Virus record (IMG/VR): IMGVR_UViG_3300021387_001709
Span: 64,001 to 128,000 of that record
Length of the DNA stretch: 64,000 nt
Source of the DNA: a virus
Taxonomy: Duplodnaviria; Caudoviricetes
Reading direction: 5' to 3' (one strand)
How positions within the stretch are numbered: position 1 is the first letter of the stretch; every line of letters starts with the position of its first letter. A program made the position numbers and the translations under genes. Of this stretch, positions 2,852 through 31,004 are shown one piece after another. The notes beneath the pieces are model-generated. The model worked only from the letters and a program-made list of their open reading frames with translations. It did not search any database and was not told where the DNA came from.

Positions 2852-2868
2852 ATTTTATATCCCTCCTT

Positions 2869-5800
2869 TTAATTCGATGTCACCGTGATATCTTCATACT
2901 CGAACGTACACTAAAAATCAGCATTCACTTTTACATCGTTTGCCGTAATAGTAATGGTTTTTGTCCCGATACTATGCCGAATGTTCCAATAAGTGTCCGC
3001 GTCGTTATCACGGCTTGTTCTTGTCCAAGTAAAACATGACGCATCATACTCATCTGTTACGTCAACATTATTTTTTAATAATACAGCAATTAATTGTATG
3101 TCTCCTCCAAAAATATTGGTTCCATTTGGAGTCTCTATAAACAAGCTATAAATAGCTTTATTTTCTAAATCCTATCGCAATGTAGTAAGAGCATTGGACG
3201 TGCCATTTTTAAACTCTGTATAGTCAACGCCAAAACTTCCTCCTCCGGTAGTAATCTATTCTATAGATACCGTATCTCCCTATTTCATAACATTAAAACT
3301 AAGTTTATTTTCAGAAATTGTATTATCATGAATCATATTATTCACAATCAAACCGTCTGCAACCGCATCAGCCGTAATTCCACTAGGTTCAATAATCGTA
3401 GCACCATTTTCATTCCTCAATACCAAACTCGGTTGCCCGTTGGTCGCATATCCAAGCTGTACACCAACGTAATCATTCCCCTAGGAGTCTGTTCCAAGAA
3501 TCTGTAATGCCTACCCGTTCATAACCATTTTTCCATTCTCAGATATAATCCTCATCTGATCGCTAACCGTAATATCGCCGGCTGCGAGATCACCAACCGT
3601 GATTTTTCCGGCAACAGCATCATAAATATAAGCATCGGTAATTGTACTGGTAGCAGCAGTGGAAGAGAGTGCTTGCAAACTTCTGATAAATGCATTGCCG
3701 ACATATTCCGTCTCAATGTTTGCCACATCAATAGTAGCAAGTTTTGCCTTAAGGTCTTCCACCCGAATTTCGGACGCTACGACCAATGTACTTTGTAAAT
3801 ACTCAATAAAAGCGGTGTCAGCGGTCAGTCGTTCTACGTCAGCTTCCGTGGCTGATAATAGAGCAGTAATAACGACATCTGCATTTATTTGATGTGCCTC
3901 AATGTACGGAGCTATTAATTGTGCAAATTCTGCATAATCACCGGTTATTTGGCTAACGTCAATAGATGCAGCAGAAATGCTGTTTGATACCAGATTATTA
4001 ATGGTAGCTTCTCCGGCTTCAAGAATATTAGCCGATAACTGGTCAAAATCACCGCTCTGTGCTTGCAATAGCTTTGTAACTATTGTATCGCTTTCGAGAT
4101 ACTTTGTAATTACCTCGTCAAAATGCCCGGATTCTGCGTTAAGCAATACGGTAGTAATAGATTCGGCACTTAATCGACCTGAAAACAATTCATCAAATTG
4201 TGCCTATGTTCCGGTTATATGATCGACCTATACGTTTGTATTCCCCATATAAGTAGATATTAAATTATTAACTTCTGTGGTATTTGTTCCACCAACCACG
4301 GACATCGCCTAACTTCTTACAGCATTAGTAAATAATCCCGACCTAGTCATCCATGTGAGCAAGTTCGTCGCGTATTCTTCATCACTCTTGGAGGCGCCGG
4401 TTCCCAGTGAAATGCTATTCTTTTGTCCTCTATTATTTTCATCGTCTATTATTTGAGTAAAATCATTACGCCCGCTCTTAGAAGTTATCATAGATGAAAA
4501 CGTAAGCTATAAATTCTCATCTACTTCACATGGGTTGTATTCTATTTCAATTATTCTCAGTTTAACACTGTAGTCATCACGGATTCCTAGCCTAATAAAT
4601 CGCATTAGTCTAAGGTCTTCATTCCAGTCCGCAAATTCCGGAATACGGAGAAGATTATCCAACTCCACCGTAAACTGATATTGAGGTCTGGACACCTCAG
4701 ATAATTTACTCATTGCATCTTCATATAACTCAAGCTGACGGTCTATCATCGTTGAGGTATCATCTAATGACGTCGAAAAAATATTAGAGTTTGTATAGTC
4801 GGTGTCTATGAACAACGTTTTAATATAATTTATTTCGTCTTCGGTAAATCCTATCTCATTGTCATATATATCAACAGCTGTCTCAAGTGCAGCTCCTTTA
4901 TTATAATAATTAATATAATCCTCGGCTGTTTTAAGAAGACGCTGTTCTTCCTTGATTTCATTCTCCAAATATGCCTTACGTTGCTTCATTTGCTAAATCA
5001 TTTCCTAAATATGGAGATAGTCATTACGTCCCTAAATATTATATGCTGTTTCATTTGCATAGTTAGTTTTTTCTGCTGCGGTCATCTAATCCCATGGTTT
5101 GGCAAAATGATTAAGAGCCGGGAGCTTATCTAGTTCATAATTCTTCAGCTTGCCTTCAAGTTCATATAAACCATAGAGTTCCCAGTTTTCTTCGCTTTCC
5201 TGACCATAACGAATTTTCTGATCGTTTGGAAGATTTTCATTAAGCATCGCCTGCTTTATATACGGAATAATGTATGTGACAATTTCCATATAAGTATAAT
5301 AACCACCCTAATTGGCTGCTTTAAGTAATTCCAAATATTTTTGATGATCAACCTCTCCGTCATCTGTTTTATAAGGAATATATTCTCCGTCTTTATCATA
5401 CATTTCTTCCGGTTCCCTAGTGTCTACGGATGTTTGCAAAACAGCCAGTTTTGCTTCATTTAATTTAAGGTGTTCTTGCAGTGCTTCCATGCTCATATTA
5501 TCCCATTGTTTCCAATATGTATCGTCACTCGGAACATGGTATTGTAATTCGTCTATAATTGCGGCCTGTTTTGCAGCCTATTTATGCCATTCAATCAAAC
5601 TCGGTTTCCGATAATATTCCCTGAATGCTAACCACTTATTAATTTTATCAATCAGACTTTGGTCCATGTATGGCTCTGCCATAAAATATGATAGATCAAA
5701 ACATTGATCGTCACCAAAATTGACAATAGTAGTAGTCAGATCATTTTCGCCGCGAACACGAAACCTCGTATAAACACTGTCTTCATCTACTGATATATCT

Positions 5801-6513
5801 ACATTTTTTGCAAGATTTCGGTATCCAATAAATATATTAGTATCAAAATCGAGGTTCTCTTTTCCGTATGCGTTAACTGTTCGATTAAGATAATCAAAAA
5901 TGAATATCAATCCCAGTCTGGGAGCAACAGTGTTGGTCATTATTGAATATATATTTGCATTATCAACTTCAATGATGGGGATTTGCATTTTATAAAGACC
6001 ACGGTCAATATGTCCAATGCTCCAATATGGCAATTTAGTCAACATTAAGTGAAGAAATGACAATTCCGGATTATCGGGATTATAGAACGTAACAAACTCC
6101 TTCGCTACTCCTAGGTCATTTATGTTGTCAGTTGCCAACATTTCCAGACTGTCTTCTTTTCCACAGTTTATTTTTAACCCTATCCAATCTTTTTGTTCAA
6201 ATTCTTTTTCAAGTGAGTAAGCCTACACTTCTTTATATTCATAATTTCCATCGTTATGAACTGTCGGCTCCTACATTTGGAAAAAACCGATACCCTCAAG
6301 TAATAAATACATATATATCTTAAGGTCTTCGTATCCATTTGATTCAATTAATTCTCCGTCTATAGATAAATAACGATCTACATTAAAAGTCAACTCATCG
6401 TAATCTTTCACATACTGATGGAAGTCAACAGAATTAGTTTGCAAACCGTTAAGAACTGTTCTGATTTTTAAATCCGGAGTACATAAATATATTTTTTTAA
6501 CGTCCTAAATCAT
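2869..6513 (-). CDS. Tal-like tail tip / tail spike protein, 1214 aa in code 15
   Basis: Seven same-frame track fragments joined through TAG. Starts ATG ATT TAG and ends TAA 2869. Lies after Dit and contains I.A..I.A spike-like repeats. Confidence 0.75.
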
Positions 6514-7361
6514 ACTAACCAGCCTCCGGCAATTTTAACAGGAGAGTCATACTCTAATTTTATACTGATGTTCCCATGTACGTTTATTAAATTTCTGCCC
6601 GGTTTAAACCTAAGCCAATAAATGTTGCCGACGTCACTCCAGCCAAGCTCTCTAAAATGAAGAGTACCGACCTAATCACTTGCAATACAATGCTTACAAT
6701 CGAATGAATATTTAATATGACGAGAAGTGGTCACCTTCATAGTATTATTGCTGTCCGTGGCATTAGCAATCCTAAAAGATGGATTGCTTGACAAATCAGA
6801 ACAGTAAACGACAAACTTCGGATATACCCATTCTTCCAATTCGTCAGATTTACAATCAACCGTAAAACTCCAATCCGGAAGTCCGTCCGTATCGTCTACG
6901 GCTCCGTCCGGCGGAGGAGTGAGTTCCATTGCATAATGCTCATACGCATATGACCCATTTACGGAAAATGTAAAATCCATTGCATAAAATCCGTTGTCAG
7001 TAGGATACCACTGCGTTGTCGTGAATTTTCCATAGTATTTATATCGAACGTTGCCATCACAATCCGTAATCTAAATTGGCAATGAAAATTTTGGTGAAGT
7101 CAACCATCTCTCGACAGCAATCTGTTCATCATATGTAAACTCCGTCATATCTGACTTGACAAGTGAATAGACAAACTCAAGATGCTCGGCAATTGTCCCA
7201 TATTCATTTACAAACGGACGACTAATTGTAGGTTCTCCGCCAATAAGAGACCTTGTAACACCCTATACATTTGTAACTCCGCTCTCCGTGGAACATAATA
7301 ACAGCTCCGATGACGGCAAAATGGTTGCAGTTGAATTACCATTATAAATAAAACCGGCCAT
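6510..7361 (-). CDS. Distal tail (Dit-like) protein, 283 aa in code 15
   Basis: Immediately follows the tape measure gene. MAGFIYNG start and ERWLTSPKF motif, with an ATGA overlap into the next gene. Confidence 0.7.
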
Positions 7362-7419: not shown

Positions 7420-10400
7420 TCAGTGTCCTGCCTTGCGCATATCTTTGCTCATTTCTTTTGTAGTATAGTTATATATATTCTTTTTAAATGAGGCATTGCT
7501 CATCAATCCCTTTGCTATTTCTTCAAGCTGCGGAATAATGGATTGATCGGCATTACCGTCTATTTTTATTAAGTTATCATAATGTATATTAATACTCTGA
7601 TTGGTATTATGACTAACATTGTACTCTGGTACTTGGAAATTCGGTGTTTGGACCGGAACCATACCGGATTTTGCCATTTCCATAAGGTTAGCCGTAAGAT
7701 CTGCAGGAATTACTCCGTCACCGGCTTTTAATGGCATAAGCATTACGCCGCGACGTGTAACTATTGCCTCTGAACCATTTTCATTAATCCTATGCAAACC
7801 CGGTTTTGCGTTCTTTGTTCCTTTTGCGTACCCATCTTCAAGTATCTCTTCTACCGGGGCCTCTCTAAGCACAAACCCTTTTCGGAATATATCTCTGATA
7901 TCCCCAACATCTTCCCGGATTTTCTGAGCTTGATTCTGGATATTGTTTTGGTATGCATATTCTTCCTTGGAAAGATTATCGTCATAATGAGGGACATAAC
8001 TGGTTATACCGCCGGGTCTTCTGAGTTCATTGTACTCGAGATTCTTCCCTTTTGTCCACCCAGTTTGAATATTGATAGCATCCGCTACCTAATCAATTTC
8101 TTCCATTCCTAATTGCCCCGCATAAGCGTCTGGATGGAATGATTTAATATAAGCATTGAATGAGTTATCAACATTTTCTAACTGAGAAGAAAGATTGTTT
8201 ACGGAGTCTTTTACAAGTTCTATAGCATCGTCGAGGTTAACAGCCAGATCTTTTACATATTTTTCGAAGTTCTCCTAAAGCTATGTTTGAAGATCTGTTA
8301 ATCCTTCAACTCGAAGATTGACTATGTGTTCTTTTACAGTATCGTCAAGTTCTTCTTGCATTTCCGCACGTTGTGCTTCGAGACGTGCCTTTTGAGCGCG
8401 ACTCTCGGCATCAGTTAGGCCATTTAGTGCGCGGATTTGCTGCTCGATAAGCTATACATCTTTATTTTGTTTTCGTAGTTTCTTATCATAATCATAAAGC
8501 TCTTTGCGTTTATTCAACTCGTTCTTTCTGGCATCAATTAGCTTGTTAATATAAGTAATTTCTGTTTGATACCTGTCGGTTATGTTCTTAATAATGGTTT
8601 GTCTTTGCGATGCTAAAGTAGCCAATACATCTCTGCCTTGCGCCTCGAGTTCATTTTTACGCTTCGTATATTCTTCAAGGCTGTATGACTCATCAGACCC
8701 AAACAAATCATTATTCTATCTTATTGCGGCGGCTATATAAGTATATTCGTCTTGCGCTTCCTTATAAGCGCGTAAATCCATGGCGTATTTATCAATTCCA
8801 AGCTGAGTAAACACACCGTCGGTTGTATACATCATATCTGGGCTGATTAATCCCTTGAATTGCTCTGTTGCTTTATGCAGCGTTGCGAACTGATTAATTA
8901 CATTATCAATTGCCTTGAAGTAGACGTCCTCACGAAGTGCGTCCTATACTTCTCCGATATCTATCTCTAAATCGACTATCTCTTTGCTCGTATTGTTAAT
9001 TTCTGTCTGCATTTTCTTCCATTCTTCGCTGCCTTCAATGATTCTACCGGATGATACTGCATTGGCTAATTCGTCGGTAAGTGCTCGCCTCTGATTATAT
9101 AATGCAGAGCGCATGTCTTTTATTTGCTGAATCTCTTCGCCATAGCTATCTACAACTCGCTGAGCATCCGATCCTTTATTTATCTTCATAACCGGCTTAT
9201 TTTTTGTAGAAGTATTAAAAGTAACACCTCTAAGCATACCTTTTTCGCGGTTAACTGTGTTTCCGGCGTATCCACGTTCCTACCACAATTTACGAGTTTG
9301 AGTTGTTATACTTCTAAGCCCATCAATATAATCTATTGTAGCTTCATACCAGTTTTTAATATTCTCAAATCTTTCTTGCGCAATCTTTTGTTCTCGTTCG
9401 GCTGTTTCAAGTGCAGCTTGATTGAGTTCTTCTTTCATTTTGGACTCTTGATCTTTTGCCTGAGTGAGGGCAGTAGTAACATTTTCTAATGATACCACAC
9501 TATTATTCCACAATGCGGCTACATGAGCCAACGCATTAGAAACTTTTGTCGGGTCTATCTTTTGCCCTTTTTTCATAGCTTCATCAATGATAGCTTTTTC
9601 GGCTTTTGTTGCGGCTTGGTACGCTTTGTCGCTCTTGATACTCTTTGCCCTATCAGTCTATGCTTTCTGAAGTTTTGCACGTTGTGCTTCGAACTCATCG
9701 GTGACACTTTCTTGTTCTCGTAATGCTTTTAATCGTTCCTATAGCTATTTCTTCATTTGTTTTAATTCTTCTTCTAGGTATTTATTCTGGGTTCTAAATG
9801 TCGGCACTTTTGAGTCCGCCGAAGCATCCGCGTCCATAAGAACTTTTGCCTAATCAGAAATTCTCTGTTGTTCTGTTGCCACTGCCTTTTTATCAATCTC
9901 ATTTTGCTTTTTAGCACTTTCCCAATTAGACCTTGCATTATTCTATGCCGCTTTTGCCGCAGCTTGTTTGGCAATTTTATTATTATAATCATTTACCAGA
10001 TCTTTAAAATGATTACCCATCCAACTTTGATGTTCAATACGTTTACCCTGCGATATTAATTTAAGAACCCAGTTTTTATCCTTTGCCTTTACATTGTTCT
10101 TGTTCATGAATTGCTTAATATTATTAATGGATGTCTTGGTCATCGATTGACGTTTTTCATAGTCGGATTTTTTTGTTTCATATGTATTCCATCTGGTGCT
10201 TCTCGCAGTCGCGGATTTATTTTCGACTTTCTTTTTCTCCGCGACACCCGTTGCAAGATCTATCATTCGTTGTGCCGACGCAATGCCGGATCTGCCGCTG
10301 GATATCGCACTTGTTATTCCGGTGATAGTATTAATTCTATTTTCAACTTTCTCTAATGCCTGCTCAAGCTTTTCGGTCGGTAGCTGAATAATCTGGTCTT

Positions 10401-13400
10401 GTAGTTCTCGCATTGTATTTGCTAATTCTTGAATTGCAGTATTTGCTTCACGAGCTTTATTAATATAATCAAGGTAAGCCCGTGCGCCTTCAACAAGTGC
10501 GGCATCGTCCGGATTAGTTGTATCAATAATATCAAGGTTATACTCTCCGGCCAATAATTTTTCTCTATTGAATTTAGTCCAAATATTTGCAGTCTTTTTA
10601 TTTCCGTCTTTATCGGCATAAGAGTAATTAGTTGCCAATTGCTCTGCGAAATTTGCATATGTTGTAGCGGCGTGAGAGTTAGCTTTAATTTCATCCTAAA
10701 TAGCTGTAATTTCTTTGCGGAGAAGTTTTCCTTTAGTTACTTTATTTACGTAGTCGGTAATCTTATCGGCAAAATATTTTGTTTTGTCCGCGAAATACTG
10801 AAGGCGAATTTCCACATAATCAAAGATTTCCTATGAAAACTGCGGTTTATCTTCCTCTTGCGGTTTTTCATCTCCGCCGGTGCCTGCGTTTCCGCCACCG
10901 GTGCTTGCTGTTTGAGTACCGCTACCAACGTTTACGTTGTTGTTATTTCCGCTAACACTAACTCCGGATTGTCCACCACCGCCGCCGGTCCATGTAAATG
11001 TTCCACCGCCTCCGGGAAAGGCATTCGTTAATTTAGATAATCTGTCAATTGTCCCATAAGCATAACCTCTGGCAGAACCAATAACTTTACCAATTCCGCC
11101 GTTCATACCGCTGAGTATTGCCCTAAGCTATGAATTGTTGAAAATTATATCTCCGGATTTTAACTGCATAAAATGAGCGCCGCCAGGAATAATACTGAAT
11201 TTACCGTCTCGTACTAATCCCTCCGGACCAATTTCTCCTACTAAAGCAGTTTGATCTTCTTTTAGCGCAATATCTCCCTTTGCATGAGAATCATATTCTT
11301 CATCTTTCAGAATACCTTTATCCGTTATCGTCCCTTTTGCAAATGTCTTTGATATATTATTTAAAGTTCCGGTTGCTCTGGCAACTGATTGAACAGTACC
11401 GGTAGCACCAGATTTAGTTTTCCCGCCGCCTCCTGACTAGACCGTATTAACATGGATTGTTGCTGTCATGGCATTGATTCTCGACACAGCGGCATGAGCA
11501 GCAAGCAATGCATTGCCGGTTGCAGCACCGACATGTATCATTGGATTTAATCCTTCAATAGTATTTGCAGCAGAACGAGCAGCAAGAATAGCATTTCCGG
11601 TCGCAGCTTCTACATGCATTGTCGGAGTCATTCCGTCAATTGTACTCTTTGCTCTGTTAGCGGAAGCAATCGCTTTGTCTGTTTTTGCTTCGACTTTCAT
11701 TTCCGGTTTCATGGAATCTATTTCTTCTTTTACCGAATCAACCTAATCCAACGCCTCTTCTGGATTAACTTTAATATCAATTGGATCGGTGTCTCTGATA
11801 CCATCAATTGCAGTTTTTAACGATTCAATCTATGAGGTAGCGCTATCAATATTTAATTTGACTGGAATATTAGATGCTTCAGCTTTTAATGCATTAAGAG
11901 CAGTGGTAGCAGCATTGGTATCAAGTGACGCTGACGTGGAGGATGTCTACTTATTGCCACCACTAAGAAAATTAGAAACAGCACTAATTGCGCCTCCCAC
12001 GGCGTTTTTAGCTTTCTGAATTACTTCAACTATAGTAACTTTTTTTGTCGCTGGTTTCTCCGCCTCCGCTTGAACTTCATCCTAACCAGTAGCTTCAAGT
12101 TTAACTTCCTTTGTGTACTCCTCGCCATTAATCGCAGCACTAACAGCTTCATTAATCCCCTAGAGAGAACCCTCATCTAATCTTACGGGCATAGATATTT
12201 CTTTTCCGTCGAGAGAATCTATCATTGCTTCGGCGGTTTCAACATCAGATGTATCTATATTTAGAGTGGCATCAAGAGTTCCATCATTCATCGATTGCTA
12301 TAATTCTTCTAATGAACCTCCGTCTTCAAGATACTGTTCTATTGCAACTCGCACGTTATACTCCTACTGGGTCTTTGCTTCAAGCTATTCAAGCTATGCG
12401 AGTGCTTCTTGACCGCCTTCTTCTTCAACATTTATTTGAGCCTTCATCTAGTCTATTTCAGCTAATTTATTCGAAAGTTCGTCCACGCTCATTGTCGCAG
12501 CATCAAATTGAGTTGCTCCCTCAAATTGAGTACCTTTAAATAATGCCTCCACCTTATCGGTAGCAACAGTAGCACTATCGCTAAATTGATTCATACTGTC
12601 GATTGCTCCGGCAAAATCAATTACGCCTAAAGCGGCGAGGATGTTCACCAACTATTCGCCCTAAGCAGAAGATAAGTTTGCTTCTTTAGCAATACCCTCA
12701 AGGGCATCCTCAGCAGCTTCGAGTCCCTTAACATTATAGTCTCCATCTCCCAGCTTAATCTATTTGAGTTCATCATACGATATCCCTTTAAGAGCGTCCG
12801 CATATTCCATAACCGCATCTTTTGCGTTCTGAATTTTAGTTTTGCCTGCTTCAAATGCGGAGAACTCAGCGGTGTGTGGGTCTATTCCAAATGCTTCAGC
12901 GCCAAGAGGAGACTCCCACGAACCAATTTTACCCTCGAGGTCTTTCATAGCGGCATTATAAGATGCTTCATCAACCTCGAAGTCAGCATTTACTTTAATT
13001 CCATAATCATCGGCTAAATCTTGTGCCTCACGGAGAAAACGATTTGCGCTTGCTTCGTCACCGCGCTCCATTGCATCATCATAATATGATTTAAGGTCTG
13101 CAATACTACTCTTGAGATTCTTAAGGTTGCTTACGTATTCCTATGCTTGTCCTCGCTAGAAATTTTGAGTAGCTGTCTGTACGGCATTCAGCTATCCTTG
13201 ATACTGATCAATGACATCCTACTGAATCGCCAAATCATCGGCGCTTGCGCCTTCACGCTTCATTTCGGCATATTTAAGCTATGCATTGGTAAGCTCATTA
13301 GTCCATTTCTATGTCTGAAGTTGAGCGTCTTCCATGGAGGAAACGAACGCACCCATTCCGCCATATTCTTCGGCTTTGCCAAACATGTCACGGAACCATT

Positions 13401-16400
13401 CTTCGCCAGCTCCAAATTGATGGGCGGCCTTGGCTAAATCAGTAAAGTTCATTACCAGACCTTGGGTACCGTCTTCATAAGTTTCAAGAGTAGCCATACC
13501 GGCACTCTGTAAATCCATCATGAATTTATGTACGCCCTGGATATCATCGGTCATATATTTAGAGAATTTATCATAGTTCTGTTTGAATCGCGTCGGGTCG
13601 GATAAGCCCCATTCGTCAAAATAAGCGGCACGAGTTTTGTAATCGTCCGTGCCAATCAGACCTTTATCCCACATTTCTTTTGCTTCTTTGAGATAATTCA
13701 TTGCCTTGTCATAATTTGCACCTTGATTCACGGTTTGATCCGCAAGTGCAATTTGACCATGCTGTGAGAACTGCTCCATAAGCTACTGGTATGCGGCAAA
13801 TACTTGCGATTGTTGTTGCTGAAGATCTGCAAGGTCTTGTTTCAGCTTGTTAATACCAGCAGTATTTATATCACCGCTTGCATTTTCCATGCGATTAAGT
13901 GCTTCGGTAGTTTGATTGATTTTTGTTGTTAAATCATTGTTAGATAATTCATACTCTTGTTGCGCGAGACGCTGTAACTCAACAACATTAGCTTTAACAC
14001 CGTCAGTTGTATTATAGAATACACTGGATAAATCAGCAGAAGAGCCTAAATCACTGAATGCGGTAGATATTGCTTTGATTGTATCCGGAGTTATACCGGT
14101 GGGAGTAGCCATTTCTGAGAATGCGGACTGGATAGCAGAAGAGAGGTCTTGCGCTTGAGTAAGTAATAAATTACGAGCCTGATCATCATAACCATATGCG
14201 TCAGCAAGTGCTTGCACCATGGATGATTCGTTTTGGCGGATTTGATTAAGTGTATCTTGGTATTCTTGTTTGTTATTTCTAAGCGCAGGAAGTTGATTCC
14301 TCAATTCTCTGTTTTGGTCTGATAAATTCTTTGCTTGCTGTCTGGATAAAGTCGCAAGATTTTTGTATTCTTTTTCGTTAGCTTTGATACCTTTCGCCTA
14401 GTTTACGGTAATTTCATCATTAATTGCAGAAGCTTGGTCTTGGATGTTTGTCATCTAATTTTGTAATACATTAAGATGAGATTCTGCTTCATTGTACATT
14501 GGGGAAGTGTATTTCTGGAGACCGGATATAACTTCTTCAGCATCTAAGGCTTCCTAGTACATGCTTGCTGACTACTCAAGATCATATATATCTGATTTTG
14601 GATTTCCATATCTTTGAGCAAGATCAAGGGCGTCAGACATAATAGATTCCTAAATTCCAATCTGTTCTTTTGCATTATTCGCCTATAACTTTGCAAGATT
14701 ATGAGAAATATATTCTCCTCTGTTTTCAATATCGGTGCGTTCTTTTTGTAACTAATCTCCGTTAGCTTTGGAAGTGGCATAATCCGTTTTTAGATTATTT
14801 AAATCTGTTTGCGCATTTTCTTTTCTGGTTTCTATCATTTCTGTTTCCGTGCTTGAAATATTTGCCAGAGCCTCTCTATAATCAGCTAATGCTTTATCAT
14901 ATGCTACCTAATCACGTCTATCAGCCGCTTTATTCATCCTTCCAAGTGCGGTATTAGCCTTATCGTGATATGCCTAAATATCTGATTCATATAATGGCAT
15001 GACACTATTATTAAGTTCTTCCTCAGTTAAACGTTCGCCTTTTGCTTGACGGTTCTCATTTCTTGCATTTATTAAGTTTCGCTTTTGTTCATTTTTCTCT
15101 AAAACGGCTTCGGCTTCACGGTCTTTAATAATCAAATCCCATTCAATCTTTTTATGATTATACTCAGCTAAAATTTGCTATAATGTTGATTCTGCCGTAA
15201 TCGTACCATCAAGCGTCAATTCCCAAAGAACATTATAATTAAGTTCTTCGCCGTTCTATGAGAGAGCAGTTAATACATCATTATATTTCTATTCATTAAG
15301 ATGAGAACCTGTCTAATCTGTATATGAAAACGTTTCTTTTAAACTGTTTTTTGCTGTTTCGGCAGAAACAGAAAGGTTGTCATAAGATTCAATTAAATTA
15401 TCAATATATGCCTGTGATGCTCTTGCAGCTTCCGGTGTGAGAGGCCCTTTATCAGCCTATACTTTTTTAAACTCTTTGATATATTCCGATAACTATTTAA
15501 CCGCAGCGTTATTAATGCCTTCAAATGAAAAATCATCCATACTTGGCATAGCATCTTGCAAATTTTTCATTTCTTCTGCTGTAAGTTTACCGTTTTCACG
15601 GTAAGACTCTAGTGCATTATTCAGTGATGATAAATTAGATTCATACTGTGATGCACTTTTTGAAAAATCTTCGTCATTGAGAATATCCGCAAGAGTACCA
15701 GTTCCAGCTTCTTCTTTAATCTAGGATAACTGGTTCAAATATTCTCTGAGGGATTCAATTGTATTGCCAACAAAATTAAAGTTTTGATTGTTCATCGCTG
15801 TCTGGGCAATTCTTTGTTCTTTTTGCGTTAAACTCTGTATATCATCCCAAGATATCTTGCTTTTGCCTTGTTTATAGACATTTTTACCATTAGCATCTTG
15901 AGTTACCTCGCCGCCAAGTCTTTCGAATATAGCAGCCCGAGTGTCAGTAGCATTCCAATGAGTATTACCATTTTCATCTTCGTCTTCGTACTTATATCCA
16001 AGAGATACAAGAATCCATTGTTTTATTTTATAATCTTCTGTACCTTCTCCACCCGGAAAAATTTCATTAAGAGTTTCATTTATCTATTGTCGCATTTCCT
16101 CATTTGTAGCGTTGTCAAAATCAAAATCAAATATTTTTTGCATATCTATAGTGTCAACGTCACCGTTTTGCAAAGATCTTTCTATTGGGGCTATAATTCT
16201 ATTTTTTAATTTTTCATCAAAATTATCTCCGCCACCTAACTAGTCAAATAATGCGTCATAATTAAAATCTATACTATTTAACATAGTTTCGATTCCAGAT
16301 TGTATTTGCTCTGGCATACGTAAATAAGCTGGATCCGTCTCTAACATATCCATAAAATTAGGTAAAAATTTTGAAATCCAATTACTCTATTTACTCTTAT

Positions 16401-19400
16401 TTAACGCATCTACTGTACTCTAAGTAGCGTTTATTCTATCAGCTAAATCATTCTAAAAAGCAGTATAAACATCTTGTACCTTAGAAATATTATCTTTATT
16501 TACCTCAATCACGCCGGTGACATCATATATTTTTGAATATTCCAGACCGGCTTCTTCCATCATAGAAATAAAGGCATTTTCCGCATCTTCTTGCCCTTTA
16601 AAATTAAAAATATTTCCTTCTCTCTGTCTCCCGGTTTCTATCGGCTACTAAGCCTAAGTTAAAAGCCGCTTATATGTATCTATAGCATTCTATTGTTCTT
16701 GTATTTCCTCGTCTAAAGTTTTATTGGTTTCTTCTATATTCCCAATAATATCCGGCATTCTTTCTTTTAATGCGTTTGCGTTCATTCTGTTTTGTGCTTC
16801 AATTAAAGCGTTTAAACTATCCGTAGCTTGCTAAGCATTCTTACCTAAATCAACTAACGATTGCCCACTATCCGTTACACCGGTTTTTAAGGACGGAAAT
16901 GTATCGGCAAGCTATTGATTAATGGCTAAAAATTCCTCATAGTCATCAGTGGAAAGAGAAAGATTTTTAATTTGATTCCCATTCATATAAACTCCACTAC
17001 GGAGCTCATTATATCTATCTTTTGCTTTCGTACCAACTTTATTAATATTGTCTGTTTGTTCCCTTATCTCTCTAGACTCAGTAAGAGCCTCTTCTCCCTT
17101 TTTAATTTTATTTTCTCTTTCGTGAATTTTATTATCAATTATATTAAATAAGCCAGAAACAACCCCAGTAACAAGCATAGACAACCCAGCTGTGGCGGCA
17201 AAAGATGCAATGCTTGTAACGGCATTCCCTAAAAACCCTCCAACACCACCGAGAAGTGTAGTACTTTTTCCTATTTTTGATATCATTTCCGTAACACTGG
17301 CAGTTTCTACGTTTAATCCTCTCATATTAGTAAGTAAATCGCGGACGTCTTCTGTAGCATTTTTTAATGATCCACCTAGCGGAGAAACCGTATCCCAACC
17401 AATCGCGTCCTTAAATAAAACGTCCTAAGAACCCGTTGGGATTAGCGTTTGTAAATACTTTATAGCATCTTTTCCTCTTTGAGAATTGGCCGTAAAAATA
17501 CTTCTAAAAGCCGTGGCAATACTCCCAGACGCATCGTAACCATTAGTGAATTTTGTCATCTAATCTTTTATAATTCTTCCAAATTCCCAGTCTCCCATAC
17601 CGTTTTTACGGAACAATCCGTTTCCGGTAAACTGAAGGAATCCACCGATTCCGGCTCCGAGAATTCCGCTAAGTCCGCCGAATGCGTCTACTAATTGCGT
17701 AACCACTTCAACTGCGGAAGTGCCGAGATCAATGATATCTTTAAGCCATTCGCTGTCAATTGTTACTGTTGCTAATTGTTGTAATCTATTTTGAAGCTAT
17801 GCCATTTTCCCTTCTACAGAATCTAACTATGCATTAAGTTCGTTTTGTGCCGACCCTTGTGAGTTCATTAGGGAGTCTTGATAGACGCTCTTTAAGAGTT
17901 CAGGGTTACTGAGCAGCGAGGATGCTGCAGCCGCCCTTGTTTTCGGAATATTGCACAAATTACGCAACAATTTGTGATTATATTTTGGTTAATTTATACA
18001 GTCAAAATATAACTCTTACACTTTCGCGTAAGTCTAGACCATTTTTTAACCCACGACTTAACGTTTGGGTCACACCTTTTCGAACACCATTTGCGATTGT
18101 GTTCTACTCCTAAAGATTCAGATATTCAGGATTTCCACCTTTATTTTATAACTAATATGTATAATAGCATTAGTATTTCTGAATCCCAACACGGGGATGG
18201 TCGTTGAACCTTTACCCTCGACTTAACTGTTTGTATGGTGTACAAATAACGTTAGGGTACTTGGATGCGAATTAGCCACGTATCTTTAAATTATTATCCT
18301 CTCATAATCTGATTTCTCAATTATTGTAGTATAAAGCTTTAGGCATTCAACGCATTTAAATGTGTTCTATAAATATGTTTCCATATTTTCAGGCAAAATT
18401 TACCTCAATTATGTTAAACATGGTTCACAACACCATGTGATTCGTAATAAACGAATCTCTTACACTTTCATGCAAGTTCTGACCATTTCTTCACCCTCAG
18501 CATCATCTGTTAGGGGCATACCTTTTTGGTGTACCATAAGTTTGTACCCTACGATTATTCATAATCTGGTCGATGAACGTTCACCAATGTATAATACAAA
18601 ATATACATACAGGTGCTTCGATGCAAGAACAGCCAATCTTTATGTTATAAAACCATCATAATATATTTTCATTATTATTGTGGTATAAAGCTCTAAGGCA
18701 TTACCTGCAATTAGATATGTTCTTTATATATATTTCTATATATTGTGGCAAGCCGTTTGCCACCGTTTCAAGTAATAGCGACTATCTATTGGTGCCCAGT
18801 TTCTTATCTTCCTCGCCGATTTCCTTAAATACTTCGGCGATACCGAGCATACGCTCATAAGTTGTTTTGTAAGTACCGTCATCATTAAGTATATCAAAAC
18901 CTTTATATCCGTTTGATTGCACTTTTGTCGCGTCAAGAATCGTCTGTCGCAGCTTCGATTGTGTAGTAATTAAACCATCGATTTCTTCGCCGGCTTCTTG
19001 CATATCCTCAACAGATGTTCCACTCAATCTCAGTGAGATTGTCTTAAGGGATTGACCAACCGTGAGAGGATCTTGAAGCACGGCGTTAGCAGCAGTAGTA
19101 AGAGCTACAGCTTCGTCAAATGAATCGCCTGTAACTTGTAATGTACCAGCAGATTTCTGAAGTGACTCAGCTAACTCTGACGTACTGATTGCGTAGTTAT
19201 TCAAGCTGTTACTTTCGGATAATTATTATCCTACTGACCATTTAATAAATGGCGCATAGTCGTTTCCGGCTATGTCTATGCCTTCATTTATTCGCATAGT
19301 TCAGACTGTATATTACATCCCTCACCAAATAGGAGAGTAGGATGGATAGCTTCAATACATATGTTACCATATATATCCCGCAGTCGTTACGGTACAACGA

Positions 19401-22400
19401 AATAGACATCGTCTTACCTCGGTATCACCCTCTGTGGGCTTCTACCGATATAGCTATCTATAGTTGTATTTACTACAACCTAACATATTACTATGTTATT
19501 AGGCAAAATCTACCTATATAATTTAACTTGTCGATGATTTCCGATTTGTCAAGATCTTTATACGCTTGGCTCATTGCAACAAGAGATTCTGTTGCCGCAT
19601 TAATATCCTAAAATTCAGATATGTTAAGCAAAATACTTGACTGCTCCGCACTTTTTTGTGCTTGTTCAAATGATTCACCAAGCCTTAACCAGTCAGCGGT
19701 ACTTTCTTGGATTTGCTTAGATGTTGTTCCGACACGATCGGCAGCCTCAAAACTTCCATGTTGCGCGAAATCTTTAAGAACACTAAGTGGTTCATCAGAC
19801 ACTTTTCGCATTTCCGTAAGAGCAGTATCAAGTTCTCTAACGATATTAACGCCTTGTTTAGCAATATTGATCACTTCATACAAATCTGCGTATGTAAGTA
19901 AATATCTCGCCATTCCCTTGAACGAACCTTTAAGGGTCTCTCCAAATGATTTACCGACATCGCCGGCTTCTGTCGCCTGGGTTTTTATCCGCTCGAATGC
20001 AGCAGCGATTTCGTTAAGATTACCGTCGGACACACCATTTATTGCGTCTTGAAGGTTTTGAATTTGTGGGAAGTATTCGGTAGCAGCAGAATTTTTGTAC
20101 ATCCATTCTTCCATACGACGTTTAAGTGTGGCGGCGTCTTTTTCATCGGCGAGAGAGTAGTACCCACCACCTGCGCGTTGAACAGCTTCATTCAATCTAC
20201 CTCTAAAAGATAATACCTAATCCTAAATTTGATTACGTCTATCAGGCGAAGCTTTTTCATATTCTTCAGATGTTTTAACCAAATTTTCAAATTCATCATT
20301 TAAATCTTGTAAAACCTTAACTCCATCTTCGTTCCAATTACCTTTGCCTAATTTTTGGAGTACTTCGCCCATTTCTTCGAGAGTATCAGTAAATGCGGAC
20401 GTAGATGCGTTGCTCATAGCACTATCGAATTGCTACATTAGCTATTTTAATGAGTCTGATGCCTCACCCTATGCCAAAGCAAAAAGACCGGTTTTTTTAA
20501 TCGCATCATCATAAAAGTTACTATATCTATTTAAAAAAGCCTACTCCGAGTAATCTAACATCTGACCATTCGACTACTTCTATTTTATTTGCGCATAGCG
20601 TTCCGCGTATTTAATAAGTGTTTGATATCCACGCTCAACATTTTCAAATTCATAATTCTCATTATCATTAAATGCAGACATTCCTGATTTTAAAACGTCC
20701 ACATCTTCCATTTTTTGTCTATAATCATCAAGTATTGAATCGGGAACTGTCCAAGTCCCACCTTGATTTAGTTTATTAAGCGTAGCATATGCGTCCTCCG
20801 CCCCCTAGCGAAGTTTTTCCATAGTATCTACGGCTCGTTGAAGTTGATTGGCGTTAATCTCTCCAAGGTTATATAAATCCTACGCATTGGACGCTCGCTC
20901 AGCAGCGTCATGGTATTTCTGTATCTTATCCATTTGTTTGCTTGTAAATTTAGCTTCTTGCTAAACGATAGCCTTGGTTAAATCCTCCTAGGATTTCTAA
21001 GACCCTTCCTTTGACACATTATATTTATCTAAAGCCGAAGACGCCTACTCCTCCGTGATTTTCGCCTCGTTTCTCATTTCAATTATCTTTTGTTTGGCCG
21101 TATCCGCGGCTTTTCCCGCATCCTCCAATACTTTAACAATAGCCCTTTCTTGATCACCGGAAACAGCTTGTCCTTTTGCCTAGTCTGTTAACATTTTATT
21201 AAACTAATTTCGGGCTTCAATCGCGTCTTCAATAATTTTTACTTGCTAATTATACTCCTTCATATTCTCATCGGCTTCTTTTTTATCTTGCGCGGCTTTT
21301 ATCGCATCTCTGGATTTTGCACTACCGCCACTTTCAGCTTTTTCTAAATCATTAATGGCTTTGTTATATTGATCTTCTGTAATATCGTCTTTAATTTGAC
21401 CAAGTTTTTCCCTAACGTTGACCGCTTTTTCAAGTGCCTATTCTAATCGCTACACAGCTTCAGCCCATTCATTTGTTTTTTTTATTTCAGGATCGGTCTC
21501 TGATTTTGCAATGAGTTTATTCATTTCTGTTTGTGCTTTAAACAACTCATCAATTATTTTCGTTTGTTCTTTATAAGTTGCGTCAACATCATCAGTTTTC
21601 GCCTTCTATTTAGCTCCTTCTAACTTCGCTTCAGAATCGGTAATCTTTTTTATTCCCGTGGCCATAACTTTATTAGCGTCAATATATTGCTACTCAGTTA
21701 TAGCTCCTTGTTTTCGAAGTTCATTCAAGGTTTTGTTTGATTGTATAAGATTGTCTGTAGCTTTTTTTTCTCGTTCTATCGCTAACGTCATCTAATCGTT
21801 GGAAACAAATTTGCCAGCTTCTTGATCAGCTTTAAGCTTATTAAGTTCCGATACGGCATCTCCGTATTCACGAATGGCTTGCATTGCTTCTTTATATTGG
21901 TTTTTAACATTTTGGTCAAATTCGTCTTGTTGCGCTTTGCCCTATGCCTCATAACGCTTACGCCCCATATTATATTCGGTGTTACGCGCTTTTTGGTATT
22001 GCTATTCTCCCATAGCAATTGCCATAGCATCTGATAATTGTTCTTTATATTCTGCATCTACGTCCTTAAAACGTTGCTGAATAGATCTTAACTTATTATT
22101 AAATTCTTCTAGGTCTTTAGATTTAAGATCGGAACCGATATTATCTTCAAGATTACGCAGTTCACTTTCTAATCCTAAAGTATCTGCATTAGACTTCTAC
22201 ATCTTACGCATAGTACTATGTATATCAGTAACTAATTTATCTTTGGCAGCTGTTATGCTATATGGGTTAAACTGAGTGTTTGCTTTCTAATCTTTTATAG
22301 ATTGTTGTGCTTTTCTTTTATATTCATTAATTGCGACGCCTAATTCTTCCTTAATAGTCTTAGGCATTTCTTTCCCAGCATATGCGTCAAAATAATCCGC

Positions 22401-25400
22401 AAATATTTTATCATACATTTCTTTAAGAGCTGTTTTATCCGAATCCGCCAAATCAACTCCCGCATTATCGACATATTTCGCCTTTATATTATTAAGGTTT
22501 CCTCTTTGTCTGGCTATAAGAGCGTCAGTATTTTCAATAGACTTATTTCGCTTTTCATTTTGTCTAAATTCTCTTTCTTCATCTTGTTGTTTAAATTTTG
22601 CATCAAGAATTTTTTTGCTCTCCATTACTCTTGATTCAAAATCATTGACCTAATCTGAACCAGGCAAATACCCCGCACTTTTATAGTACCCATACAATTC
22701 ATCATTCATTCTACTATAGACATCATAATATAACCCTAACTGAGTCTCTAATCCATCGGTATTTTTTCCTTGCTCTCTGGCGACTTTTATATCATGGTCT
22801 AGAGTAAAAACTTTATTCGCAATTTTTATTACTTGGTCTTCGAGTGTTTTATAATTTGTAGAAGTAGTAGTGGATTCAAATTCATTACCGTCTTCGTCGC
22901 GCATTATTCTGGTAGTTTCTTTTTCGCCATAGCCCAATCTTCTAGTATACGATGTCCTTTCGCCATCAACTTTTGTTTCTCCAGTATATACACCTTTTCG
23001 ATCATCAGAAGTATCACCTTGCTGAGTTACCTCAGATATAGCATCTGAATTTCTCTTAGCAGCTTTACCTTCATTATCAAGACCTTTTGTCGCTTTCTTT
23101 GTGGCATCGGCGGTTTCTTCGCCAGACTCGGCAACTTTTCGGTTAGCTTCTTCAAATTTCTTCTTTTTTATTTCAGAAACCTCGGCGGCTTCACCTTCGT
23201 TCGTTATCTCCCTGGTGGCGTCCCGAAGCGGTTTAGTTCCATCGGTTGTGTTTTTCGTAATTTTTGCCGAAGACTCAGATAATAATTCATTTAAATGTTG
23301 TTGATCATCAGCTGATTTTTTAATATAACTTAGAAAATCATCTTTGCTAGATGGGGGATTGGATAAATATTCGTAAAGCTATGACAATGCACCCTGTGTA
23401 TTAGTAGAAGTATCAAAGATATGTCCAAAAGACTCATTTATCTCTTCCAAAAATGATATTGCATCTGAACCTTTTTTAGTTGATAAAGTACCAATACCAA
23501 TAGTTCCAAGAATGTTGTTCCAGTTATCACCAAATTCTTCTCGGTCACCTTTAGAGATTCGTATTTTATTAGATGATACAAAACTTCTAATTTGTTTCCA
23601 TAATTTCATATCACCCTATGATTCAATTACTCCGCTATCCCTAGAAAGAATATCAAACAGATTATCATAAGTTGGTATTTCACCGTTCGCGGTTTCAACC
23701 AAAAGATTTCGAACTTCATTTTTTAATTGTCCAAATATTTTAGTGGACTTTACACCAAATTCATCACGAATGGCAGACGCTACCCTAGTCGTTTCTTTTT
23801 CTAAGTTTTGTTCATCAATTATAATATCGTCTATAGGCGACTCACTTGGCATACTTTTATCCCACATATTAGATATTTCATTAAAAGTATATCCGAGTTC
23901 TTTTGCTTTAGAATTAAATTGATCTATCGCATCTGTAAACGGAAGATCTTTTTCCGTAACCTCAAATTCCAAATCGTCTACTATAGACTACAAACTTTTT
24001 GGGGCCAACTTGGTCATATTTTCAAATTTCTAATGCGGCAAAATATCCTCGCCATTTTGTGAAATTTTCTTCCAGGCCCCAGATATTTCATCAAAAGCAT
24101 ATCCAACCGACTCAGCAAATTTTCTAACAGCCTCTTCACCTTTAATAGACTCCTTGGTTATTTGATCTAAGAAAGCACCATATCCGTCCGGAAGTTCATC
24201 CTCCGCCATTCCCATAGCATCTAAAATAGGCTTTGTTCCCTCTGTGAATTTCAATATTTCACCATTTACACGACCATTTCTTTCACGTTCTGTTACAAGT
24301 TCTTCCTATCTTTGAGCTATATGAGATTTAAACTCGTCCATTGCCGCATCATATTCTTTTTGCCCAGTAGCAACGTCGGCTATTAACTGATTTACAAAAT
24401 CTTGATTTGCATCGGAATATCCCTCTATGGAACGGATATCTTTTCCGAAAGTAAGACGTTTGTCGTCTGGGATGACACCTTGTGAAACTGGAGTTTCATT
24501 TTGCCGCATCTTTTTTTGATATTCTTGAAGAGAAAATTCAAAATGTTTATAATAATCATCTTTATTAAATGCATCGTCAAGATATGGTTTATGACCAATT
24601 ATGTCCTAAACAAAATTTTCATCTATATTTCCATCTTGCATATCTGCAATTATTTTAGAAATATCTCCATCTTTTAATTCTTTAAGTAAATCAACATATT
24701 TTTGAAAATTATCAATACTCCATTTATCGCTTAATGTTTTCTATAGTACTTCTAGTTCATTTTCTGGCAAATTTAATGAACTAAACATTTCGCGAATTTC
24801 ATTAGACGACTTTTCAAATGCATCGTTAATTGAATTTCCAGCGATATCAGCGTTCTATGGAATCTCAACACCAAAAATATCACAAATCTACTTTAATAAA
24901 CTTTCAAAGTTTTGACCTACCGTTACATTTAACAAATCACTCTAAATCTATTTTATTTTTTGCGCAGCGTCAATTGTCTTTGTAATCTATTCGCCAGCCT
25001 ATCCAGGTTTTAAAGATAATTTATTTACTGTGATAGTTTCTTGATTAACTCCTTCTCCAAGATTTATTAATTTATTTACCAAATCAACGGTATTTTGCGC
25101 ACCAGCATTAATCTAATCGAACTGTGTATTAAAAATTTTAGATAACGAATCGGACGGAGAAGAATTACTTGTAAATCTTAATGTAGCTATCTTTGTTAAT
25201 ATTCCATATAACTATTCATATCTCACAGTATTCTAATTAATATCGGTATCCGATGAAATCGGACTTCCATCGGAATCTCCAGCTTTATGGTTTTCATTAT
25301 CTATAGCATCGGCCGCCTCTTCAATCTTTTCCGCCGTTTCTTTCCCAGATTCAGCAACCTTTTCTTTATTAACTTTTGCGAATTCTTCTTTATATGGGAT

Positions 25401-27875
25401 TGCCTCTTTGGCGGACTCGCCCTCAGTTTTTATTGCGTTTGCGCCTTCCTAAAGAGAAGAGAAGTCAATAGAAGAGATAGTAGATTTGAACGTCGCAATA
25501 GATTTATTTAACTCATCAAAATTACTAGTAATGCTTTCCCAATTAATACTTGATAATATAGAATCATTACCACCTAAACTAAAAGCATTCTATATAGCCT
25601 CCCCCATTTTTTCGGCGTTCTCAGCAACTTTTTGCATTGTTTCATTAAGTTGCTCAAGAAATGATGGCGCTTTTGCGTCTTTCGGAAGAAGCCCCTTTGA
25701 CAATACACTATGCAAATTGCCTATTGCATCTGTAAATAATTGGATTTGTTGTGTGTATTCTTTTACGGAATCGGGTTGCCCAATTTCATCATCGGCTTTT
25801 ATTTTGGTCTGACTCAACGTTTCAAGTAGCTGGTCTTTTAACTTCTGTTTATCTTCAGGAGACTTTGTAATTTCGGCCTTTTCACGAATTCTTTTACTTA
25901 TATATTTGAAATCCGTTGCTGGAAAATTCAATTCCAACATTTGATCCCAAAATAAGTTTTCCCCTTTTCCGACACTTTCAGCGGTTCTCTATATAGAAGA
26001 GATGAATGCCATTATTTGTTTAATTTGGGTCTTTGAGTCAGGTAAAAGTTTAATTCTATCTGGATTAAACTATTCAACGAACTCCTAAACATTAGGGAAC
26101 GCTTCCAAAAACCCGGAACTTCTTGGTGACTATGCCATAATATTTGCTAAAAGCTATATGTCACTAACATCTCCACCAAGCATACCTTCATCTTTTAATG
26201 ATAATTTATATTTGTTTACGACGTCTAATATATTTTTATATGCCGCCTAATATCTTTCTGCCTAATTTAACCATTCTGTTTCTATATTTGCCTCAATTGC
26301 CGCGTCCGCTACATCGTCTTTAACATGCACATTAAACTATTGTTCTTTTCTTGATGTGGTTCTCGAAAAATCCCACATTTCTCTATTAAGTTGTAATAAA
26401 GATTTCTGATTATTTCTAGCTTTTTGGTTAGTGCCTTCTCCAAATCTACCTATGGCATCAGATACCTGATTAACCACGGACAACAAAGACTAAAACTAAC
26501 TAATTAACGGTTCTATTCCAGCGTCGGTATCTATTCGACCAAATGCAGAACTAATATTTGTTATTTCCGTATTTAAATTTTCTAGTATATTAATCAACTA
26601 TTGAATGTTTTCCGTATTCCAAGACGTGGAATCGCCACTCGTAGCATGAATTTCTGAAGACATCTTTTCTTTTTTTTTATTAATATTTTCTATATGTTCC
26701 TCGGTATCATTTAAAGCCTATTCTGTTTCATCTATATTTGGCACTTTTATTTTTGAAAAATCAAAATCATTAATAGCCTATTTAATATCATTAAGTGCAT
26801 TTTTAAGTTCATTTAATGCGTTTGTTGCGGAAGTTATCTGTCGCTCATCAATTTTAAATGTTAGTCCATTACCATCTTCTCCGAGAGCCTCCAAGGACTA
26901 CGAAACTTTATCTATAATATTTTGAAATTTCTAAAACGTTCCGTCATCTTGAAACGCTTTCTTAATTTTGCCAATAGAATCGGCTACGCCGGATTCGGTC
27001 TCACCCTCAACTCTATCAGCCATCTGTTTGGATGCCTCTAACTCCCTCTCAAGTTCTGCTCGCTGCTATTTTAATGATTTAACCTAGGCCTTATTTATTT
27101 CATCTGGATTTCTTCCAAGATTCTATAAATTTTTATTTCTAACGTCAACCAGTCTAGCCTATATGTCTTTATAGTTTTCAAAAATACCGGAATCTTTAAT
27201 TATTCTGTTATCTGGGTTTAAAGCAGTTCTTAATTTTTTAGTAATATCAAATATTATTTGAGAAAAATCTTTATCGTCAAACCCTATTAACTAACTCAAG
27301 TCTCCGCCTTGACCAAGATATTTAAATAAATTATCAATATAACCACGTAAATCACTTGCATTTTCCTTAGAAAATAACCCGTCCAATCGAACATTTGATG
27401 TAGCAAGCTATTTTATCTTTTTATACCCTTGACTATTAGAATCGAGTAAATCTCTTTGTATTTTTCTAAAATTATTTTTTGCCTAGTTAGCATTTTTAAT
27501 TTGTTGATTTATATTATCAATATCAAAACCGATTACTTCCTCTGGTCTAACAGTCGTTTTCCCAGCTATTTGATTAACGGTTTTCCCAACGTTTTCTAAA
27601 TTGCTCTATACTTCTCGAAGAGAATTACTAAGCTCATCCATCCCCGCAACGTTTAAACCAAATAAATCTTCACCGTTCTGTCCTTTATACATCTTTGTCA
27701 CATTTTTAATTGCGGATTCAATATCTTTAATTGAGTCTAATATTTTTGATATATCTATATCTGCATTAAATTTAATTGGTTTTTTAGCTCTTCTTTCCAA
27801 TTCATCTATTTTTTTAGTGCCACTATCATCAACTTCAACTTTCAACGGCACAATCACGGTTTCGGTTTCTTTCAT
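7420..27875 (-). CDS. Giant tail tape measure protein, join(19512..27875, 18759..19201, 18402..18405, 7420..17943), 6444 aa in code 15
   Basis: All same-frame track fragments end in TAG, and the frame changes only across three group I introns. Splicing restores the TMP core motifs DKLNYIG|NNYAIST and LLETVA-G-KTRAAAASSLL. ELDTALTEMRKV core and C-terminal YAKGT motif present. Gaps were spot-checked, not exhaustively translated. Confidence 0.85.
17944..18401 (-). mobile_element. Group I intron TMP-I3 (458 nt, no ORF)
   Basis: 5' site CAGGU|AAAUUUUGCCUG (P1 with U.G). P7 elements GTTCAACGACCAT and AAAATGGTCTAG. Ends in G before AAA ACA AGG. Confidence 0.85.
18406..18758 (-). mobile_element. Group I intron TMP-I2 (353 nt, no ORF)
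   Basis: P1 GUGGC|AAACGGCUUGCCAC. P7 elements GTTCATCGACCAG and GAAATGGTCAGA. Terminal G precedes the micro-exon AGGT. Confidence 0.8.
19202..19511 (-). mobile_element. Group I intron TMP-I1 (310 nt, no ORF)
   Basis: AUAGGU|AGAUUUUGCCUA P1. P7 elements GTAACGACTG and ATATACAGTCTGA. Terminal G, and removal restores LNYIGNNYAIS. Confidence 0.88.
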
Positions 27876-30058: not shown

Positions 30059-30820
30059 TTAGTTACCGCATCCACATCCGTAGTTATTCCCACAATTACA
30101 GCCAAACGGCTGAGGAACTACGTATGCGGGGATGGGTGAGGGAGCAAGGTATCTTTCAAGTGCTGCCGTCTGCGCTTCATTGTTAGCAAGAATAGCCGCT
30201 GTCTGCGCATCCTGCGAACCTTTAAGATTAGCGAGATTGAGCTGAGTCTGGAGATTTGCGTTCTGTGTTTTGAGTGCTTCAATTTCTTGCTGGCAAAGTT
30301 TGTCCTGAATGGACTGGATTCCACCATTAATGGTATTAAGAAGTGCGTTAGTATTAGCAGTGTTCATTGCCATAATGTCACGAACTCCGTCATTTACAGA
30401 CTGACGATCTGCGCATGCTTCGGATGCAATCTGAGCACCGAGATTGGCTACGGCCAACTAATTATTGCAACAACACTGCTACTGATTCATAGCGATAGTG
30501 TTCATCTGATTTGTAATACTTGCAAGGGTATTTGCACGAGAAATTTCCGCATTACCGAAACCGGTAGTGACGGCAGAAGTAAGACCATTCAGACTATTCA
30601 TAACAGCCATCTGGTCAAATCCGGTCTGAAGCTGTTCCTATGTTGCGTATCCGCCGGACGCACAGCCGTTATTTCCAAATCCATTTCCCCAGCCGTTATT
30701 AGCAAAGAGAAGAAGAATCAGTAACCACCAAGCACCGTTATTATTTCCACCAAAACCATCATTGTTGTTTCCAACTACTGCTGCGAGATCTGCAGCGCTG
30801 AATCCTTCACCATTGAGCAT
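30059..30820 (-). CDS. Cassette gene 4: Gly/Asn-rich protein with hydrophobic segment, coiled coil and Cys-rich tail, 253 aa
   Basis: AAAGGAGG RBS. Track fragments 30638..30922 and 30059..30457 share a frame and join through TAG. Contains GAWWLLILLLF, CCC and CNCGNNYGCGCGN. Confidence 0.8.
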
Positions 30821-31004
30821 TGTAGCATTCCTCCTTTGGATAAAATTATTAATTAGTTGTAATATTAAAATACTCCATCCATTTAATCCTTTTAACCCAA
30901 ACATAATATCATTAAGAAACAATTAAGCCTTGCCACATATTGGTAATTTTATATAACGTTTTAAAGAATATATATAATTAATGCTTTGTATTCCAATTAT
31001 CAAG

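Follow-up and report, generated by a model that had tools for sequence, protein, structure and literature searches.

A predicted 6,444-residue tape measure protein in a TAG-recoded, intron-split gene of an uncultured siphovirus-like phage

Introduction

A segment of more than 20 kb among the virion genes of an uncultured phage carries no long gene in conventional translation, and this raises the question of whether it encodes a single, exceptionally large tail tape measure protein (TMP) and, if so, what tail such a protein would specify. The segment lies at positions 7420-27875 of a 64-kb stretch of DNA (the window; bases 64,001-128,000 of the 189,811-bp IMG/VR virus record IMGVR_UViG_3300021387_001709, rated 98% complete), in which all of the long frames are on the minus strand. 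The source of the phage is a mesophilic gut or rumen-type community. An earlier sequence-only reading proposed that the segment hides a TMP of about 6,444 residues and predicts a tail approaching 1 µm. In our analysis it is very probably one late gene that encodes a 6,444-residue tail TMP, with introns in the core domain and TAG read as glutamine (Gln), in a siphovirus-like phage of ~190 kb.

Results

Gene model

With translation table 11 the open reading frames (ORFs) across 7420-27875 do not exceed 231 aa. When TAG is read through, two giant minus-strand frames appear, one at 19488-27875 (70 TAG) and the other at 7420-17970 (67 TAG), with a 1.5-kb gap between them. Removal of three putative introns from this gap would leave four exons:

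27875-19512, minus strand: TMP exon 1; 8,364 nt, 2,788 codons, 69 TAG
19201-18759, minus strand: TMP exon 2; 443 nt, centre of the TP901-type core domain
18405-18402, minus strand: TMP micro-exon 3; AGGT, the last base of an Ala codon and an entire Gly codon
17943-7420, minus strand: TMP exon 4; 10,524 nt, 3,507 codons plus TGA, 67 TAG

The joined exons (8364 + 443 + 4 + 10524) amount to 19,335 nt, or 6,445 codons (6,444 residues and a terminal TGA), with a predicted product of ~718 kDa. The join thus reproduces exactly the exon lengths and codon count of the sequence-only reading, whose three introns and TAG read-through are also borne out by the RF00028 matches, the intron-less alleles and the intact joined frame described below. 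The join contains 137 TAG, 223 CAA and 73 CAG codons, no TAA, and a single TGA that is the last codon, so with TAG as a sense codon no internal stop splits the gene; separate translation of exons 1 and 4 likewise gives no TAA and no internal TGA. A random codon would be TAA or TGA with a frequency of ~0.05, and at that rate frames open over 2,788 and 3,507 codons cannot be due to chance. The ATG of exon 1 at 27875 stands just behind a strong ribosome-binding site (RBS), AAGGGGGTGA, the pieces after the first lack start signals of their own, and behind the final TGA of exon 4 come first a terminator-like hairpin and then the next gene's RBS.

Predicted group I introns and splice junctions

Three matches to the group I intron model RF00028 fall within the 1.5-kb gap, each covering the full model (1-253):

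19511-19202, minus strand: predicted group I intron 1; 310 nt, no ORF; RF00028 match 19521-19285, 19 bits, E 0.05
18758-18406, minus strand: predicted group I intron 2; 353 nt, no ORF; RF00028 match 18768-18459, 40.8 bits, E 1.5e-8
18401-17944, minus strand: predicted group I intron 3; 458 nt, no ORF; RF00028 match 18411-18015, 34.1 bits, E 1.6e-6

No ORF of more than 47 codons is present in any of the three, and a homing endonuclease gene is absent from all of them. Each ends in a G (G19202, G18406 and G17944). Intron 1 has a much more stable predicted fold than its shuffled sequences (z = -4.8), and introns 2 and 3 are paralogous, with an alignment score of 79 compared with -0.8 +/- 8 for shuffles. 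The P1 helix (AGGU/GCCU, with a U.G pair at the 5' splice site) is identical in introns 1 and 3; P1 of intron 2 is a perfect 7-bp helix, GUGGCAA/UUGCCAC, with C-G at the splice-site position (window 18756-18764; L001 ~3368-3376).

Excision at these sites restores a frame that is colinear with the intron-less alleles. The junction peptides of the join (DKLNYIG/NNYAISTS and LLLETVA/G/KTRAAAASS, slashes marking the junctions) agree residue for residue with those of intron-less relatives, DKLNNIGNNFSISTS and LLLETIAGKTRAAAASS. Around the micro-exon the codons read GTG GC + A GGT + AAA ACA to give V-A-G-K, and the matching alleles read ATT GCT GGT AAA in locus L002 and GC/A GGA AAA in genome G001. 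Cutting at intron 2 after U18762 rather than C18759 would keep the frame and lose the conserved Ala; a TMP of 6,443 aa made in this way is less likely than one of 6,444 residues.

Natural alleles

Sixteen related IMG/VR loci served for comparison. No intron is present in this region in L002 (77% identity in exon 2, TAG-recoded), L003 (75%) or L010 (53%, standard code). In the closest relative, the complete 202-kb genome G001, the region holds only a near-identical copy of intron 2, also with C-G at its 5' splice site, and this is followed directly by A GGA AAA ACG CGT GCA; intron 3 is absent from both G001 and L002. Three natural allele states can therefore be distinguished (no intron, intron 2 only, and introns 2 and 3), and these argue that the AGGT micro-exon is real. 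The intron 1 site is also occupied in L004-L009, L011 and L016.

The TP901 core appears to be an intron hot spot in this clade. Among L004-L016, at about locus position 3000, there are at least four distinct insertion sites, located after L002 residues 200, 225, ~258 and 348 of the 600-aa query, with inserts of 0.3 to ~2.6 kb. The G001 TMP gene has four RF00028 matches (43-85 bits), with its introns reaching 70-85 bits. Two group I introns in the C-terminal third of the G001 TMP (L017 10864-11128 and 14014-14294; 74.8 and 84.5 bits) are absent from the window; one of these lies directly after the GD of a conserved NELGxE...GD motif. A frame break in G001 at residue 5204/5205 was considered as a boundary between two separate genes, and this was rejected as the break is the 84.5-bit group I intron. 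In G003:C1 the TMP gene is interrupted after the hydrophobic region by ~1.26 kb (L019/L020; region coordinates 11389-12651) in which a 345-aa ORF lacks TAG and contains a DGKQR motif; it may encode a DUF262-type nuclease. Rfam identifies no intron in this interruption, which could be either an intron that escaped detection or a mobile element of another kind.

Meaning of TAG

Codon alignment indicates that TAG is decoded as Gln in this phage. Aligned with the G001 TMP, TAG in the window is paired with TAG 66 times, and the commonest non-TAG partners are CAA and CAG, at 11 and 10 occurrences in one direction and 19 and 12 in the other. Alignment with the standard-code genomes G004 and G005 was also tried for the meaning of TAG and set aside, these being too divergent (18-24% identity). 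A candidate amber suppressor is found 21 kb upstream of the TMP gene:

~48929-49000, minus strand: tRNA-like gene with anticodon CTA, sequence read by eye

ARAGORN and Rfam reported no suppressor tRNA, including at 48929-49000.

Genes free of TAG (recombinase, HNH, exonuclease and PhoH) are interspersed among the TAG-rich virion genes; those for a tyrosine recombinase and an HNH endonuclease (32944-33960 and 36265-37539, minus strand) are located within the TAG-rich virion module. This is a pattern known for code-15 phages (10.1101/2021.08.26.457843).

Identity of the product and gene neighbourhood

The product is, from its profile matches, a predicted TP901-type tape measure protein, in agreement with the identity first proposed for it. 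Matches to phrog_4211 (tail length tape measure) occur in order in exon 1 (residues 2476-2787), exon 2 and exon 4 (residues 23-1371), and the profile positions are consecutive over the three large exons (394-720, 722-828 and 861-1780). In intron-less relatives with 75-77% identity to the window over exon 2, the scores (61.4 and 92.7 bits) exceed the curated cut-offs of TIGR01760 and PF10145, and the domain match spans all of the insertion sites. Relatives in the database are annotated as 'TP901 family phage tail tape measure protein' or as minor tail protein. Beyond the TP901-type core, a domain scan with Pfam and NCBIfam gave only coiled-coil-type noise. Among cultured phages the only tblastn match to exon 2 is in Brevibacillus phage Sundance.

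The TMP gene is situated between the head genes and the tail-tip genes, an arrangement shared by G001, G002 and G003. The neighbours that define this position are:

49518-51098: portal gene, upstream of the TMP gene
368-7361, minus strand: tail-tip genes of 283, 1,214 and 827 aa; phrog_6211 minor tail protein, phrog_3267 tail protein

No sheath family was found in the 98%-complete genome. The nearest cultured relatives of the portal, at 25-27% identity, are those of giant Firmicute siphoviruses (Sundance and the Tsamsa group). Farther along the virion genes, upstream of that for the TMP, a 287-aa ORF (30059-30922, minus strand) encodes a Gly/Asn/Cys-rich protein with CCC and CGCGN runs, and its sole match is phrog_16490, a PHROG with no assigned function.

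Protein architecture

Two types of feature can be placed along the chain outside the core:

17131-17694, minus strand: hydrophobic Gly-rich segments after the core (joined residues 3021-3041 and 3178-3208; Kyte-Doolittle scan)
11140-11238 and 7705-7785, minus strand: two copies of a [GN]ExGxE...GD motif (joined residues 5173 and 6324), ~1,150 residues apart

Between the motif copies are a Gly-rich linker and ~1,100 aa of helical character. The two-copy layout is present in G001 and G002, and in G003 and G005 the scan found the first copy only. A recent fusion of two TMPs was considered as the source of the two copies and rejected, as the layout is kept in relatives and self-BLAST reveals no internal repeat in the TMP.

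The protein is poor in proline (1.5%) and contains one cysteine. A hydrophobic periodicity of 3.5-3.67 residues is present at p<=0.05 in 58% of 105-residue windows, compared with 5% expected; it runs the whole length of the chain and peaks in its first 1,500 residues. Low-confidence AlphaFold models, each built from a single sequence, show residues 3249-4448 and 5245-6444 as mostly long helices. Sequence-level profile, phmmer and motif searches detected no enzyme family or domain in the TMP: phmmer gave no match in the PDB, and the motif scan found no DxDGD (D[FYWLIV]DGD) and no HExxH, the sole DxDxD being DFDFD at residue 3543.

Length of the TMP among relatives and predicted tail length

The TMPs of relatives vary considerably in size and in the state of their genes:

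G005: standard code; TMP of 3,787 aa, uninterrupted
G001: TAG-recoded; TMP of ~6,200 aa, four or more introns
G003: TAG-recoded; TMP of ~6,700 aa, one interruption
G002: TAG-recoded; TMP of 7,650 aa in a single ORF with ATG and RBS, 153 TAG

Standard-code database relatives have TMPs of 3,409-5,186 aa among the matches listed. Both flanks of the core differ about two-fold in length among relatives, and this drift in length suits a ruler.

Cultured phages provide a scale for the conversion of residues into tail length. Bacillus phage vB_BanS-Tsamsa combines a 3,123-aa TMP with a tail of 440 nm, or 0.141 nm per residue (PMC3903500), and Thermus phage P23-45 has a 5,002-residue TMP and an 800-nm tail, or 0.16 nm per residue (10.1101/2022.12.01.518664); the ~5,000-aa figure used for P23-45 in the earlier reading is correct. 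By extrapolation, 6,444 residues at 0.135-0.16 nm per residue would correspond to a tail of 870-1,030 nm, and the 7,650 residues of G002 to one of 1,030-1,220 nm. We tentatively raise the possibility, without giving it even odds, that this clade (~190-205 kb, mostly TAG-recoded, siphovirus-like) builds the longest tails of any known virus, at ~0.9-1.0 µm for the window phage and ~1.0-1.2 µm for G002, beyond that of P74-26. In the rumen electron-microscopy literature we found nothing usable on micrometre-long tails.

Discussion

Weighing the evidence

Several observations count against interpretation of the segment as one spliced and recoded gene whose product is a ruler. Exon 2 alone falls short of the cut-offs for both PF10145 (29.5 bits, E 8e-7; cut-off 33.2) and TIGR01760 (22.5 bits, E 5e-5; cut-off 28.8), a result of the introns splitting the domain in three. 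All three introns score below the 50-bit Rfam gathering threshold, intron 1 at only 19 bits. A U.G pair at the 5' splice site is nearly universal among group I introns, and the C-G of intron 2 departs from this. Residues 1-2475 match no family in Pfam, NCBIfam or PHROG, and the AlphaFold models, with a mean predicted local distance difference test (pLDDT) score of 41-42 for both 1,200-residue segments, are of low confidence and lend weak support to a helical structure. P23-45 gp96 is an example of a giant TMP that includes an enzyme (10.1101/2022.12.01.518664). Finally, we infer intron splicing, TAG read-through and tail length alike from sequence.

The evidence nevertheless leans towards a ruler rather than large non-ruler domains, on the strength of the helical periodicity, the helical models, the two-fold variation of the flanks and the lack of an enzyme family or motif. 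The alternative that there is one TMP of which a large part, most likely the N-terminal ~2,475 residues, is carried as cargo or ejected as an enzyme or effector would bring the tail down to ~0.5-0.6 µm, and we judge it unlikely. It has a precedent in P23-45, where the first part of gp96 is a virion RNA polymerase (10.1101/2022.12.01.518664), and it would account for a TP901 core that is unusually distant from the N-terminus and preceded by residues with no family match; the segment at residues ~1130-1560 also appears by eye to be less coiled-coil-like. However, it is in residues 1-1500 that the helical periodicity peaks, the DxDGD and HExxH motifs and any phmmer match to the PDB are missing, and the N-terminal flank ranges from ~1,050 to 3,290 aa among relatives, which fits a ruler better than a conserved enzyme.

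That some or all of the interruptions are not removed, so that the locus makes truncated or separate products or is a gene in decay within a defective genome, is very improbable: the sub-threshold Rfam scores, the weak match of intron 1 and the non-canonical C-G of intron 2 would be in keeping with it, but the 19.3 kb of frame on both sides of the gap contains neither TAA nor internal TGA, the complete 202-kb G001 has the same intron 2 with C-G and equally intact exons, the exon pieces have no start signals, the phrog_4211 match continues over the junctions, and the comparable three-intron TMP gene of Vibrio phage ICP1 does splice (PMC10448857).

Comparison with known systems

All of the ingredients of this gene have precedent, including giant TMPs, multiple group I introns in TMP genes, and TAG-recoded phages with long TMPs. 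The 5,002-residue gp96 of P23-45 / P74-26 is associated with a tail of 800 nm to nearly 1 µm, a length that no other known virus exceeds (10.1101/2022.12.01.518664; PMC10034513). Like the window TMP it is a giant single-chain siphovirus TMP, and it has membrane segments in common with other TMPs, but the window TMP is 29% longer, lacks similarity to PDB entries by phmmer as well as RNA polymerase and metallopeptidase motifs, is TAG-recoded and intron-split, and derives from a mesophilic community. The nearest cultured relatives by portal, Tsamsa, Sundance, PBC2 and Thrax, have genomes of 134-170 kb and long non-contractile tails; in contrast to the window phage, these giant Firmicute siphoviruses have TMPs about half as long and use the standard code, and the similarity is only distant.

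Group I introns (IVS1-3) have been described in the TMP gene of Bacillus cereus-group prophages (PMC2504315), and the ICP1 TMP gene has three, with splicing shown by reverse-transcription PCR (PMC10448857). In these systems, as in the window phage and its relatives, several group I introns occupy the conserved part of the TMP gene with strain-variable occupancy, and splicing restores (or, in the window, would restore) one ORF. The window differs in having two paralogous introns 4 nt apart with the AGGT micro-exon between them, in the absence of a homing endonuclease gene from all three introns, in the one C-G 5' splice site, and in a host gene that is five to six times longer.

Recoding of TAG to Gln is described in code-15 gut phages by Borges et al. 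(10.1101/2021.08.26.457843), and these resemble the window phage in that late and structural genes, including that for the TMP, are rich in in-frame TAG and a suppressor tRNA is encoded (a candidate in the window). Relatives of phAss-1 have TMPs of ~3,150-3,209 aa, a length read as typical of siphovirus morphology (PMC10607447); the window TMP is twice as long and intron-split, and no phAss-1 record matched in an exon 2 search of the phage collection. What is particular to the window is the length, 29% over the cultured record, the AGGT micro-exon with its three natural alleles, and the C-G 5' splice site.

Proposed mechanism

We propose that the gene is transcribed into a pre-mRNA with three ORF-less group I introns inside the TP901-type core, and that these would self-splice. 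A suppressor tRNA with the anticodon CUA would then allow ribosomes through the 137 TAG codons. The resulting TMP, mostly alpha-helical and probably trimeric, would be seated on the tail-tip complex encoded by the downstream genes, with tube subunits polymerising around it up to its N-terminus. The hydrophobic segments after the core may act in the membrane at DNA ejection, as proposed for other TMPs.

Implications

Intron-blind gene callers using table 11 cut this gene into dozens of fragments, and such proteins are therefore invisible in public annotations. The three alleles, with no intron, one intron, or two introns 4 nt apart, constitute a natural record of stepwise intron invasion, and biochemical work on group I introns gains a testable oddity in the C-G 5' splice site. 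Were the entire chain to serve as a ruler, the tails of these uncultured phages would be ~1 µm or more in length, at or beyond the record of a thermophilic phage, and this raises the question as to how so large a helical protein (718 kDa) is assembled faithfully with tube subunits in their thousands.

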